Source of the DNA: Escherichia coli
GTDB lineage: Bacteria > Pseudomonadota > Gammaproteobacteria > Enterobacterales > Enterobacteriaceae
Strand: one strand, 5' to 3'
Assembly: GCF_003018255.1 (NCBI RefSeq)
Contig: NZ_CP027440.1
Length of the DNA: 64,000 bases
Below, piece by piece: positions 35,163-36,796 of this stretch. Position numbers and translations under genes: made by a program. Under the pieces are notes generated by a model. That model was given only the letters and a program-made list of their open reading frames with translations. It did no database searches and was not told where the DNA came from. Within the stretch, counting starts at the first letter, position 1. The number at the start of each line of letters is the position of its first letter.

Positions 35163-35612
35163 ATGAAAAAGATTGCATTTGGCTGTGATCATGTCGGTTT
35201 CATTTTAAAACATGAAATAGTGGCACATTTAGTTGAGCGTGGCGTTGAAGTGATTGATAAAGGAACCTGGTCGTCAGAGCGTACTGATTATCCGCATTAC
35301 GCCAGTCACGTCGCACTGGCCGTTGCTGGCGGAGAGGCTGATGGCGGGATTTTGATTTGTGGCACTGGCGTCGGTATTTCGATAGCGGCGAACAAGTTTG
35401 CCGGAATTCGCGCGGTCGTTTGTAGCGAACCTTATTCCGCGCAACTTTCGCGGCAGCATAACGACACCAACGTGCTGGCTTTTGGTTCACGAGTGGTTGG
35501 CCTCGAACTGGCAAAAATGATTGTCGATGCGTGGCTGGGCGCACAGTACGAAGGCGGTCGTCATCAACAACGCGTGGAGGCGATTACGGCAATAGAGCAG
35601 CGGAGAAATTGA
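35163..35612 (+). CDS. rpiB: Ribose-5-phosphate isomerase B / allose-6-phosphate isomerase
   Basis: 149-aa ORF of the RpiB/LacAB family. Confidence 0.92.
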   Translation: MKKIAFGCDHVGFILKHEIVAHLVERGVEVIDKGTWSSERTDYPHYASHVALAVAGGEADGGILICGTGVGISIAANKFAGIRAVVCSEPYSAQLSRQHNDTNVLAFGSRVVGLELAKMIVDAWLGAQYEGGRHQQRVEAITAIEQRRN

Positions 35613-35680
35613 GATTCGTCCACTACTTGCATGGATGAGTAATGACTAATGTGGATAGAGTTTCTTTTTGAGGTTGGCTA

Positions 35681-36010
35681 ATGAAACGCTTTCCGCTATT
35701 TCTTTTATTCACCCTGCTCACGCTGTCCACCGTTCCGGCCCAGGCCGATATTATCGACGACACCATTGGCAATATTCAGCAGGCGATTAACGACGCTTAT
35801 AACCCTGACCGTGGGCGAGACTATGAAGATTCGCGCGACGACGGCTGGCAGCGTGAAGTGAGCGACGATCGGCGCAGACAATATGATGACCGCCGCCGCC
35901 AGTTTGAAGATCGCCGCAGGCAGCTGGACGATCGCCAGCGCCAGCTTGATCAGGAGCGTCGGCAACTGGAAGATGAAGAGCGGAGAATGGAAGATGAGTA
36001 TGGGCGTTGA
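35681..36010 (+). CDS. yjdP: Small secreted protein with charged DDRRRQ-type repeats
   Basis: 109-aa ORF: signal peptide (..VPAQA) then tandem D/E-R-R-R-Q repeats. Confidence 0.75.
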   Translation: MKRFPLFLLFTLLTLSTVPAQADIIDDTIGNIQQAINDAYNPDRGRDYEDSRDDGWQREVSDDRRRQYDDRRRQFEDRRRQLDDRQRQLDQERRQLEDEERRMEDEYGR

Positions 36011-36037
36011 TATAGGGGCCGGCGCGGGTATTTTCCC

Positions 36038-36796
36038 TCACGCCACCTCAATCTCCATCCCATCAAACCCCGCCTCAAACCCCGATGGTAGCGCGTTTTC
36101 CATCAGCCACGCATCAAACTGATGGCTGATATGGGTCAGAATCACCCGCGGCGAGCGGATAACCTGATTCAGCGCAAGCACGGTATTTAAATCACAGTGA
36201 TTACGCGGTGCATCCTCGCGCGGCGGGTGGCTGCAATCAATCACCATTACCTGCGGCTGATTATTGCGTAAAAATTTCAGCGTTTTTTCCGGCAGGCCTG
36301 CGGTGTCAGATAGCCACGCCACCCGGCTGTGCGCCGTTTCCAGTAAATAGCCGAAAGTGAGTTTTGAGTGGTTGAGCGGTAGCGGCGTGACCTGTAATCC
36401 CTGCAAATCAAACATCACAAATGGCTCCACCGTGTGGCTGAAATCAAGCAGGCCCGAATGTTTGAATAGATCGTCGCAGCCCTGTTCATCCGGCGGGCCG
36501 TAGACCGGGATCTGATCGCCCACGCCCCAGCGCAGCGGAAACAGCCCCTGCACGTGATCCATATGGTAGTGCGTCAGCAAAAACTGCTGGAACGATCCGG
36601 GCGACCAGCGATCGGCGAGATCGTGCCGCCCGGCGTCGATCAGGGTGATCGCGTCGTTAAACTTCACGACGCCGCTGCATGGCTGGCGGCGATACTGCGG
36701 TGAGCGCCGCGCTCTGACGCAGGCCACGCACTCACAGCCCCATGCGGGAACGCCCTGTGCGCCGCCAGTGCCAGTAAGTGTGAGGGTCAGGCTCAT
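36038..36796 (-). CDS. phnP: Phosphoribosyl 1,2-cyclic phosphate phosphodiesterase
   Basis: 252-aa ORF with metallo-beta-lactamase motif HYHMDH; last gene of the phn operon. Confidence 0.9.

Follow-up and report, generated by a model that had tools for sequence, protein, structure and literature searches.

Charged single alpha-helices (ER/K, CSAH) are known from proteins such as myosin VI/X, caldesmon and trichohyalin, and in the bacterial envelope Lpp forms a periplasmic trimeric coiled coil. YjdP, a small Escherichia coli protein, shares some features with each. Like the charged single helices, it has a seven-residue charge periodicity, charge pairs that are mostly attractive (34 against 2) and a long predicted helix; it differs from them in using Asp/Arg/Gln rather than Glu/Lys, in being bacterial and predicted to be periplasmic, and in carrying a conserved Leu once per seven residues, a feature absent from true single helices. 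With leucine zippers and Lpp it shares the heptad spacing of Leu and possible attractive R/D-E contacts at g and e', and like Lpp it is a small, predicted helical envelope protein with a signal peptide. However, YjdP has one hydrophobic core position per heptad, has no lipobox Cys and is therefore not a lipoprotein, shows no sequence similarity to these proteins, and gained no support for pairing from a tandem model. The stress proteins Spy, CpxP and ZraP (LTXXQ family) are also comparable, in that YjdP is likewise small, predicted helical and signal-peptide-bearing, and spy and cpxP were induced in the same LolCDE-inhibitor experiment as yjdP (PMC5105897). Yet YjdP has no LTXXQ motif, no match to that Pfam family (E<=1) and no PDB sequence relative, and where those proteins form a helical hairpin cradle, YjdP is predicted to form a single long charged helix.

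Our analysis gives YjdP, an uncharacterised "y-gene" of E. coli, a concrete profile, that of a predicted periplasmic, length-locked, salt-bridged helix behind a promoter that resembles RcsB-activated ones. Taken together, the evidence below is probably best explained by a small Sec-exported periplasmic protein that carries a helical heptad array of locked length and is expressed from an Rcs-type promoter.

The yjdP gene and its predicted exported product

The window, a 64,000-nucleotide stretch of E. coli contig NZ_CP027440.1, contains yjdP between rpiB and phnP. The gene and the parts of its product are as follows.

35681..36010, plus strand: yjdP coding sequence, 109 codons and a stop (ORF list)
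35681..35746, plus strand: predicted Sec signal peptide, residues 1-22 (MKRFPLFLLFTLLTLSTVPAQA); inspection shows a charged, a hydrophobic and a cleavage region
35747..35800, plus strand: conserved N-terminal amphipathic segment, residues 23-40 (DIIDDTIGNIQQAINDAY), among the best conserved blocks across genera
35801..35863, plus strand: acidic low-complexity linker, residues 41-61, differing in length and sequence between genera
35864..35989, plus strand: heptad array, residues 62-103, lag-7 z=7.9, inside the AlphaFold2 helix 54-108
35884..35949, plus strand: DNA-level tandem repeat within the array (Tandem Repeats Finder: 21-nt unit, 3.1 copies, 73% matches, score 69)

RefSeq annotates the identical DNA as "yjdP: DDRRRQL repeat protein YjdP", which agrees with the gene name given in a preliminary description of this DNA, and the protein matches the NCBIfam model NF041443 "DDRRRQL repeat protein YjdP" (DDRRRQL_YjdP, equivalog) with a score of 147.9 bits, where the curated threshold is 90 (E=8.9e-44); the alignment pairs its residues 1-103 with the full profile, positions 1-101 of 101. 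Precomputed annotation places PF28054 (YjdP) on 99-100% identical proteins (P0001-P0004) and on all listed homologues; our local Pfam-A scan of YjdP did not return PF28054, yielding only sub-threshold coiled-coil-like noise. YjdP is thus an already named and catalogued family (NF041443, PF28054), and the repeat itself is already in the family name. As a repeat finding, the array accordingly carries little weight, given that the repeat already names the NCBI family and that the tract is not variable.

The E. coli K-12 gene (b4487) belongs to the same family and occupies the same rpiB/phnP position. It is a 109-aa allele with 98.6% DNA identity to the window allele over the repeat segment, and K-12 carries a repeat element between yjdP and phnP that is absent from the window; the window allele is identical to that of strains such as Combat2C1 and Nissle 1917. 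Nearly all complete E. coli genomes carry the gene (5,404 of 5,426), and it recurs in many other Enterobacteriaceae genera. Across genera its upstream gene varies, and in Escherichia, Citrobacter and Buttiauxella it converges on the end of the phn operon, in some cases with toxin-antitoxin genes or one uncharacterised gene in between. Given this variable upstream neighbour and convergent downstream operon, yjdP is an independent unit and a stand-alone gene. We also considered a link to phosphonate metabolism from the synteny with phnP, and rejected it: E. fergusonii keeps yjdP with no phn genes seen within 3 kb downstream, and in Cronobacter the only such genes near yjdP are a PhnH-family gene and yjdM. 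Neither an RNA element (Rfam scan of 35300-36300, in which the sole match, Mcr7, was at chance level with 14 bits against a gathering score of 380) nor a terminator (scan of 35450-36150) was detected around the gene.

The N-terminus of YjdP reads MKR-FPLFLLFTLLTLSTVP-AQA followed by D, with a positive N-region, a hydrophobic core, an AxA cleavage motif and no Cys or lipobox. In 75/75 orthologues an A-D junction stands ahead of a conserved Dxx D motif, in agreement with the cut before D23 that is predicted for signal peptidase I. The signal peptide is the fastest-evolving part of the gene (dN/dS 0.27-0.54). By inspection, then, YjdP is predicted to be a Sec-exported periplasmic protein cleaved by signal peptidase I, and the signal peptide had been called correctly in the preliminary description. 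Its broader picture also holds: YjdP is small, carries charged repeats in tandem and, judged by inspection of the sequence, is exported, and no function has been assigned to it by experiment. In 7.7 million full texts we found no functional study of YjdP, the relevant mentions of yjdP being tables or maps only. The mature protein of ~87 residues consists of the conserved amphipathic N-terminal segment, the variable acidic linker and the C-terminal heptad array. Between genera, total length ranges from 101 to 116 aa with a fixed heptad count, and the linker is the segment that varies.

A heptad array of conserved number and register

The DDRRRQ repeats described previously at 35870-35980 fall inside the heptad array at 35864-35989, and the ORF translates exactly as had been quoted (...SDDRRRQYDDRRRQFEDRRRQLDDRQRQLDQERRQLEDEERRMEDEYGR). 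The array consists of the heptads DDRRRQY, DDRRRQF, EDRRRQL, DDRQRQL, DQERRQL and EDEERRM, the last residues of which form a seam of Y68, F75, L82, L89, L96 and M103. Self-identity of the protein at lag 7 was 0.59, compared to 0.17 in shuffled sequences (z=7.9; reached in 0/2000 shuffles), and lags 14 and 21 were likewise significant. Over 74 species the heptad consensus is [D/E][D/E]R[R/Q]R[Q/R]L, with L at the seam position in 87% of heptads and R at position 5 in 92%.

The same period is visible in the DNA, in which self-identity at lag 21 was 0.61 against 0.34 after codon shuffling (z=6.1; 0/2000). The "near-periodic direct repeat" of the preliminary description is therefore real at this lag but weaker than the phrase implies, the copies being degenerate: a repeat search returned three 42-nt copies at 69-71% identity, adjacent DNA units are 43-76% identical, and the longest exact direct repeat is 10 nt. 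Long near-perfect DNA repeats and frequent copy-number polymorphism characterise variable-number repeat loci, and yjdP has neither.

The degree of conservation bears directly on whether the array could be a hypervariable, slippage-prone tract whose copy number differs from strain to strain and provides contingency variation of a surface or periplasmic protein. Length variants of the kind that slippage would generate do occur. They include 102-aa alleles lacking different single units (P0025, P0026, P0029/P0039, P0024), a 123-aa E. albertii form with two extra units (P0038; +14 aa), forms of 107-108 aa that lack one or two CGC codons of a (CGC)3 run, 100-aa forms lacking RQ, and an 85-aa allele with a 72-nt deletion (-24 aa); an allele of the P0039 type was found in 2,561 blocks of a large assembly collection. 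The deletion in the 102-aa allele removes 21 nt at gene positions 208-228 (window 35888-35908), inside the Tandem Repeats Finder tract. Several of the odd lengths, however, rest on single metagenome contigs and may reflect misassembly, and among E. coli records the variants are rare. The 221-nt repeat segment is matched at an identity of at least 95% in 5,375 of the 5,405 records with the gene (99.4%), leaving ~30 below that level; the 21-nt-shorter allele accounts for 22 records at an identity of at least 90%, 16 of these at 99% or more; and 59 of 60 evenly spaced sampled rows showed no net length change.

Conservation extends well beyond E. coli. We compared 74 species representatives of over 20 named Enterobacteriaceae genera: in 71 the seam counts exactly six residues, and the heptads align across genera in register and gapless, each unit with its counterpart. 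Invariant alignment columns include Y68, Q81, Q86, L89 and L96, and the repeat has a dN/dS of 0.033-0.057 relative to Citrobacter, at dS >1. The array is thus ancient, locked in length and register, and under strong purifying selection. Because this selection is accompanied by DNA copies that have diverged by synonymous change, the array does not behave as a slippage tract. The rare in-frame variants indicate that slippage or recombination happens and that its products do not spread. The expansion and contraction raised in the preliminary description was not seen to be frequent, with 99.4% of E. coli records in the same length class, and we regard a hypervariable tract as a very improbable reading of this locus. 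The preliminary description had named an invariant repeat number together with undetected expression as the outcome that would count against it; repeat number is indeed nearly invariant, but expression is documented (see below).

Two antisense ORFs of 84-86 aa cross the repeat on the minus strand (35705..35965 and 35787..36041). We dismissed them as by-products of GC-rich periodic sequence; purifying selection acts on the plus-strand frame.

The predicted fold of the array

AlphaFold2 modelled residues 54-108 as one continuous helix, with 10-residue block mean pLDDT values of 89-97 over residues 61-100. The conserved segment at residues 23-40 was also modelled as helical, though with low confidence (pLDDT 54-68 for the monomer and <50 for the tandem model). 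Within residues 61-108, the 34 attractive and 2 repulsive i+3/i+4 charge pairs compare to 20.2 +/- 3.3 attractive and 19.0 repulsive pairs in shuffles; the observed attractive count was reached in 1/5000 shuffles and the low repulsive count in none. From sequence and model, we infer that the array may form one continuous helix of ~55 residues (~8 nm), which dense Asp/Glu-Arg i+3/i+4 salt bridges would stabilise, leaving the single Leu/aromatic seam free for weak self-association or for docking of a partner.

Neither of the described helix classes fits fully. Charged single alpha-helices are recognised by dense opposite-charge pairs with few like-charge pairs, a pattern that the predicted YjdP helix has, and, besides being stable as monomers in solution, by the lack of a hydrophobic seam, from which YjdP departs with Y/F/L/M at every seventh residue. 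Classical coiled coils have hydrophobic residues at both a and d, but in YjdP the other core position is R/Q/E. A Leu seam is unexpected in a pure single alpha-helix spacer and an R/Q core position is unexpected in a classical coiled coil, and we count both against our preferred explanation. Among the weak matches to YjdP were long proteins of eukaryotic size that match in many stretches (P0156, P0160), as expected for sequence of the charged single-helix kind.

A classical parallel coiled coil of the heptads, as a leucine-zipper dimer or trimer that would make YjdP an oligomeric rod in the periplasm akin in principle to Lpp, is possible but doubtful. The hydrophobic residue at every seventh position (Y-F-L-L-L-M here, L in 87% of heptads family-wide) is what such a structure would use, the seam columns rank with the best conserved of the alignment, and the weak profile matches all fall on coiled-coil proteins (FlbB, RNase Y, tropomyosin). 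Reasoning from the consensus, placing Leu at d would put mostly R at g and D/E at e, the usual attractive g-e' pattern. However, the second core position is R or Q (54% and 24%) in nearly every heptad, which would bring like charges into the core, and intrahelical salt bridges are as dense as in a self-stabilised single helix. Modelling two copies in tandem with AlphaFold2 did not increase confidence (helix block mean pLDDT 77-90, compared to 89-97 for the monomer; pTM 0.45), Foldseek of this tandem model against the PDB returned no two-helix match, and a PDB sequence search with mature YjdP gave nothing below E=1.6. The coiled coil suggested in the preliminary description is therefore plausible as to a long helix with a rod or coiled-coil-like shape, and lacks support from the tandem model as to self-association.

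The opposite reading, in which YjdP is an intrinsically disordered, hydrophilin-like stress protectant whose repeats matter for composition only, appears improbable. Its attractions are that ~55% of residues are charged, that the linker is of low complexity and free to vary, and that yjdP is co-induced with the stress proteins yjbJ, ymdF, osmY and ybgS. Yet constraint on composition alone would require no conservation of heptad register, heptad number or individual units, all of which are conserved across genera; in addition, the Leu and Gln positions are invariant and the helix is predicted at high confidence. For the array, these predictions point to a charged single alpha-helix or weak leucine zipper and not to a disordered low-complexity tail.

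Polyanion binding had also been raised for these repeats, and it was not borne out by the charge balance of mature YjdP, which is net acidic with 28 D+E against 20 R+K. Binding of LPS phosphates, periplasmic glucans, colanic acid or nucleic acid by the Arg triplets would accord with Arg being the most abundant residue (20/87), with the R at heptad position 5 in 92% of heptads, and with the co-induction of yjdP and colanic acid genes. But acidic residues outnumber basic ones in the helix alone as well (17 against 15), nearly every Arg is paired to an Asp or Glu at i+3 or i+4 so that little positive charge is left free, and no binding domain was detected in Pfam or PDB searches; we give this role a low probability.

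The proposed promoter region and envelope stress

Upstream of yjdP, the following elements were identified.

35610..35623, plus strand: RcsB-box-like operator TGAGATTCGTCCAC, overlapping the rpiB stop codon (35610-35612)
35647..35652, plus strand: candidate -10 hexamer TAATGT, with a predicted transcription start near 35659
35670..35673, plus strand: ribosome-binding site GAGG, 7 nt before the ATG, read from sequence

The consensus of the RcsB homodimer box is TN(G/A)GAN4TC(T/C)NA (PMC7913699), and TGAGATTCGTCCAC fits it at every specified position except the last, where it has C rather than A. A single copy of the extended box motif TTGAGAWTNNTCCNCT lies in the 64-kb window, and 0/100 shuffles contain it. 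Of 80 orthologous loci, 79 have the core TNRGAN4TCY ahead of the start codon, by ~70-75 nt in nearly all of them and despite differing upstream genes; 76 distinct upstream sequences, with flanks otherwise unconserved, share the extended consensus AtTTGAGATTCCTCCGCTAC. Within the same 76 sequences, the T, the A and the final T of TAATGT are each conserved in at least 80%, at +37..+42 from the start of the box, and the upstream alignment also conserves AGG/GAG and the following TGG. A strict sigma-70 consensus scan of 35450-36150 called no promoter upstream of yjdP and gave a single hit downstream of the gene; our promoter proposal rests on phylogenetic footprinting.

The arrangement resembles that of rprA, and with it a textbook RcsB-activated promoter. 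In E. coli K-12 rprA the spacing from the RcsB box to the -10 element (TACTAT) is the same +37, and both boxes lie at -49..-36, begin with TGAGA and fit TNRGAN4TCY. Both kinds of gene also respond to envelope and lipoprotein-trafficking stress. The candidate yjdP box differs from those of rprA-type promoters in having C in place of A at the last consensus base. By analogy, transcription of yjdP would proceed from an activator-dependent promoter with a start near 35659 and an RcsB-type box at -49..-36. As a second RcsB-box control we tried the bdm-osmC intergenic region and set it aside, given that it contains one strict-pattern site (TAAGATTAGTCC) and that chance also predicts one in 3.5 kb.

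Published RNA-seq places yjdP among genes that respond to envelope stress. On LolCDE inhibition it rose 9.5- and 10.6-fold, alongside wca, osmB, bdm, ivy, yjbEFGH and rcsA (PMC5105897). The same response takes in Cpx and sigma-S genes (PMC5105897), so the induction does not by itself demonstrate that yjdP depends on RcsB. In combination, the conserved operator and these data suggest that yjdP belongs to the Rcs envelope-stress regulon, which, if true, would add a conserved effector to a well-studied response.

What YjdP might do in this setting is a matter of speculation: its job could be structural or protective in the stressed periplasm, perhaps as a fixed-length rod whose N-terminal helix binds a partner. 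A more specific version, which we consider a long shot, is that YjdP is a molecular rod of the Rcs regulon whose six heptads (~8 nm) measure or bridge a fixed distance in the stressed envelope, with the conserved N-terminal amphipathic helix, on the same slim chance, anchoring it to a partner or to the membrane. Were this so, YjdP would be the first bacterial periplasmic charged single helix of conserved length, and an altered heptad number would change envelope-stress tolerance or Rcs signalling.

In a supplementary table of an iModulon study, yjdP is grouped with rpiB under "Crp-2", a hint that some transcription may continue from rpiB into yjdP.

The YjdP family and its heptad repeat

The repeat lies in a small open reading frame whose neighbors in the window are as follows.

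35163..35612, + strand: rpiB, the gene upstream of yjdP
35681..36010, + strand: yjdP open reading frame, 109 codons
36038..36796, - strand: phnP, convergent with yjdP

The charged repeat string quoted in the preliminary description is present exactly in the translation of 35681..36010. A 451-nt segment around yjdP matched in 5,404 of 5,426 complete E. coli genomes and was 100% identical in strain Combat2C1, where RefSeq names it "yjdP: DDRRRQL repeat protein YjdP." The window protein also belongs to the NCBIfam equivalog NF041443 "DDRRRQL_YjdP" (147.9 bits, E = 8.9e-44; cutoff, 90 bits), and the precomputed Pfam family PF28054 "YjdP" covers its homologues. Given these three annotations, the DDRRRQL repeat is already known, serving as the family name rather than constituting a new observation.

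The family is narrow. Among 1.84 billion proteins we found only 53 representatives at E ≤ 0.001, the weakest being long repetitive proteins that match the charged stretch only, and searches against solved structures and other families returned no sequence relative. Spy, CpxP, and ZraP are unrelated to YjdP. When one genome was scanned for each species, relatives turned up in more than 20 named genera of Enterobacteriaceae, including Escherichia, Citrobacter, Enterobacter, Klebsiella, Raoultella, Kosakonia, Leclercia, Buttiauxella, Atlantibacter, Kluyvera, Cedecea, Trabulsiella, Yokenella, Pluralibacter, and Phytobacter; Cronobacter was added through cluster look-up. A spurious open reading frame was excluded by the conservation, dN/dS, and measured induction of yjdP.

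The protein is organized as follows.

Residues 1-22: predicted, typical Sec signal peptide (MKR, hydrophobic core, AQA|D), without a lipobox
Residues 23-40: highly conserved amphipathic segment, DIIDDxIGNIQQAINDAY
Residues 41-61: variable acidic linker
Residues 62-103 (35864-35989): heptad array, DDRRRQY, DDRRRQF, EDRRRQL, DDRQRQL, DQERRQL, EDEERRM

The array is followed by EDEYGR. All 75 orthologues compared carry an A-D junction before a DxxD motif, which fits the predicted cleavage site. Mature YjdP would be 87 residues long and net acidic (28 D+E versus 20 R+K), with charged residues making up 55% of it. Self-identity of the protein at lag 7 was 0.59, compared to 0.17 in composition-preserving shuffles (z = 7.9; 0 of 2,000 reached the observed value), and was echoed at lags 14 and 21. 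In the DNA, in-frame self-identity at lag 21 was 0.61, compared to 0.34 when codons were shuffled (z = 6.1). The repeat is nonetheless degenerate at the DNA level: Tandem Repeats Finder reported only 3.1 copies with a 73% match, adjacent units of the window allele share 48 to 71% identity, and exact direct repeats get no longer than a 10-mer at lag 21 and the (CGC) run CCGCCGCC.

Copy number and age of the heptad array

The preliminary description had proposed that charged repeats of this kind can expand or contract by slippage. To census copy number, we queried all complete E. coli genomes with a 221-nt repeat-bearing segment of yjdP. At least 95% identity was found in 5,375 of the 5,405 matching records, and 59 of 60 evenly spaced sampled rows had no net length change. 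A second query represented the commonest shorter allele, a 102-aa form that lacks one unit through a clean 21-nt deletion. This query matched 16 records at ≥99% identity, 2 at 95 to 99%, and 4 at 90 to 95%; the remaining 5,382 fell in the 80 to 90% band, where sampled rows spanned 21 nt beyond the query, fitting the predicted 21-nt gap. In the searches with the 451-nt and 221-nt segments, four of the matching places lay on plasmids instead of chromosomes, and two places were present in a few genomes.

Length variants do exist. The 102-aa alleles differ in which single unit is absent, some sequences lack one or two Arg codons in the CGC run, one form of E. albertii has two additional units (123 aa), and an in-frame 72-nt deletion, which takes out about three heptads, yields an 85-aa protein in one blood isolate (strain 2024CK-00535, L012 290-547). 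In E. coli FLI21 (L013 1-502), an IS1 element truncates yjdP at its 5′ end. Slippage or recombination thus happens at yjdP, yet its products stay rare. In the common 102-aa allele (L002 3165-3207, compared with window 35845-35908), about 11 substitutions cluster just upstream of the 21-nt deletion, for example, CAGCGTGAAGTG -> CAACGCCAGGTG. Such a cluster beside the deletion suggests that the segment came in from a diverged lineage by recombination and was not made by simple slippage.

The same constancy extends across genera. The hydrophobic residue at every seventh position of the array, which we call the seam, occurs exactly six times in 71 of 74 full-length orthologues. Orthologues range from 101 to 116 aa, with the variation sitting in the upstream acidic linker rather than in the heptads, which align gap-free and in register between genera. 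Relative to Citrobacter, dN/dS in the repeat region is 0.03 to 0.06 (dS > 1), equally low as in the N-terminal domain, while the signal peptide evolves faster (0.27 to 0.54). The fixed seam count, gap-free register, and low dN/dS argue that the array is old, with individually orthologous units, and that purifying selection acts on both its sequence and its length. The census of E. coli records and the species representatives contradict a slippage-driven variable tract. What the preliminary description observed is correct, though annotation had it already; its reading in terms of slippage is mostly wrong.

Predicted helix and proposed role

AlphaFold2, given a 16-sequence alignment, predicted a continuous helix over residues 54-108, with 10-residue block means of pLDDT of 89 to 97 over residues 61-100 and low confidence in the N-terminal part. 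Within residues 61-108, i+3/i+4 spacings hold 34 opposite-charge and only 2 like-charge pairs, compared to 20.2 ± 3.3 and 19.0, respectively, in shuffles, a pattern that reads as the signature of a helix stabilized by its own salt bridges. The family-wide heptad consensus, [D/E][D/E]R[R/Q]R[Q/R]L, has one conserved hydrophobic position, and Y68, L89, and L96 are invariant alignment columns.

A pure charged single helix has no hydrophobic seam, and a classical coiled coil is hydrophobic at two core positions. YjdP differs from the former by its seam and from the latter in that its second core position would be R/Q, so its sequence pattern appears intermediate between the two. To separate these possibilities, we modeled two linker-joined copies in AlphaFold2 with a paired 30-sequence alignment. 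Helices were again predicted, with no gain in confidence (block means, 77 to 90; pTM, 0.45), and a Foldseek search with this model recovered no matching two-helix fold. A classical coiled-coil oligomer is possible, although its core would be atypical and modeling gave it no support. YjdP would behave much as charged single helices or weak leucine zippers do, without fitting the full definition of either.

Polyanion binding, also raised in the preliminary description on account of the charged repeats, is unlikely given that YjdP is net acidic and its arginines are paired with acidic residues. A disordered, hydrophilin-like protectant is hard to reconcile with heptad conservation at the level of register. 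The best-supported reading is that YjdP, made in response to envelope stress, is a small protein of the periplasm with a salt-bridged helix of fixed length (∼8 nm) as its framework. It would likely interact through the Leu seam and the conserved amphipathic segment near its N terminus, and its role, though speculative, is most likely structural or protective in the stressed periplasm.

Upstream region and flanks of yjdP

Expression of yjdP is documented in published data: RNA-seq showed 9.5- and 10.6-fold induction by two doses of a LolCDE inhibitor (PMC5105897). Also in that table are the Rcs-regulon genes wca, wza, osmB, bdm, ivy, yjbEFGH, and rcsA, together with genes of the Cpx and sigma-S responses (PMC5105897). 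By comparing upstream DNA between loci with differing upstream neighbors (rpiB, a histidine kinase, a transporter, and others), we found a sharply conserved block.

35610-35623: RcsB-box-like operator, TGAGATTCGTCCAC, overlapping the rpiB stop codon in E. coli
35647-35652: -10-like hexamer, TAATGT, upstream of yjdP

The motif TNRGAN4TCY precedes the start codon in 79 of 80 species-representative Enterobacteriaceae loci, ∼70 to 75 nt away in nearly all. Over 76 distinct upstream sequences the box consensus is AtTTGAGATTCCTCCGCTAC (also given as TTGAGATTCCTCCGCTAC), followed by ∼18 unconserved bases and then tTgatTA.cgT; in the -10-like hexamer (TAnnnT), the T, A, and final T are each conserved at ≥80%. 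The 64-kb window has a single occurrence of the extended box motif, and 0 of 100 shuffles have one. The box fits the RcsB homodimer box TN(G/A)GAN4TC(T/C)NA, which was established from structural and gel-shift work (PMC7913699), with the last A as sole mismatch. As a control, the E. coli K-12 rprA promoter (L095 424-466) has its box, TGAGACGAATCTGA, at -49..-36 from the annotated 5′ end and a -10 (TACTAT) beginning 37 nt past the box start, a spacing equal to that at yjdP. From the conserved box, the -10-like hexamer, and the rprA-like spacing, we infer an RcsB-activated promoter with a predicted transcription start near 35659, which would give a leader of ∼22 nt with a GAGG ribosome-binding site. 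A strict sigma-70 scan did not call this promoter, and we did not find it described in the searchable literature; the candidate is a modest, testable addition rather than a surprise. The listing of yjdP with rpiB under "Crp-2" in the supplementary table of an iModulon study hints at some co-transcription of the two genes.

In O157:H7 and related genomes, similarity to the window starts only at ∼35694, within the signal-peptide codons (5′ end of yjdP, 35681-35694), and the signal peptide there is a different one, MKPYSTLFLF... In agreement, the als-rpiB region as far as yjdP is reported to be replaced by the OI167 island (PMC10128022), whose junction thus appears to fall among the first codons of the gene. 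Downstream, the yjdP-phnP spacer is only 27 nt in the window (36011-36037), a short form common to strains such as Nissle 1917 and Combat2C1, and is 146 nt in strain 2024CK-00535 (L012 548-693). Most sampled E. coli alignments, including that of K-12, break at ∼36010-36017; K-12 carries there a repeat element that PMC5100583 describes as a G-quadruplex-hairpin ("HPGQ") element. At two Citrobacter loci (L010 3487-4157 and L011 3327-3862), toxin-antitoxin pairs have entered the yjdP-phnP junction, a HigB-like toxin plus an HTH protein at one and ParE plus Phd/YefM at the other; insertion at this spot seems to be recurrent.
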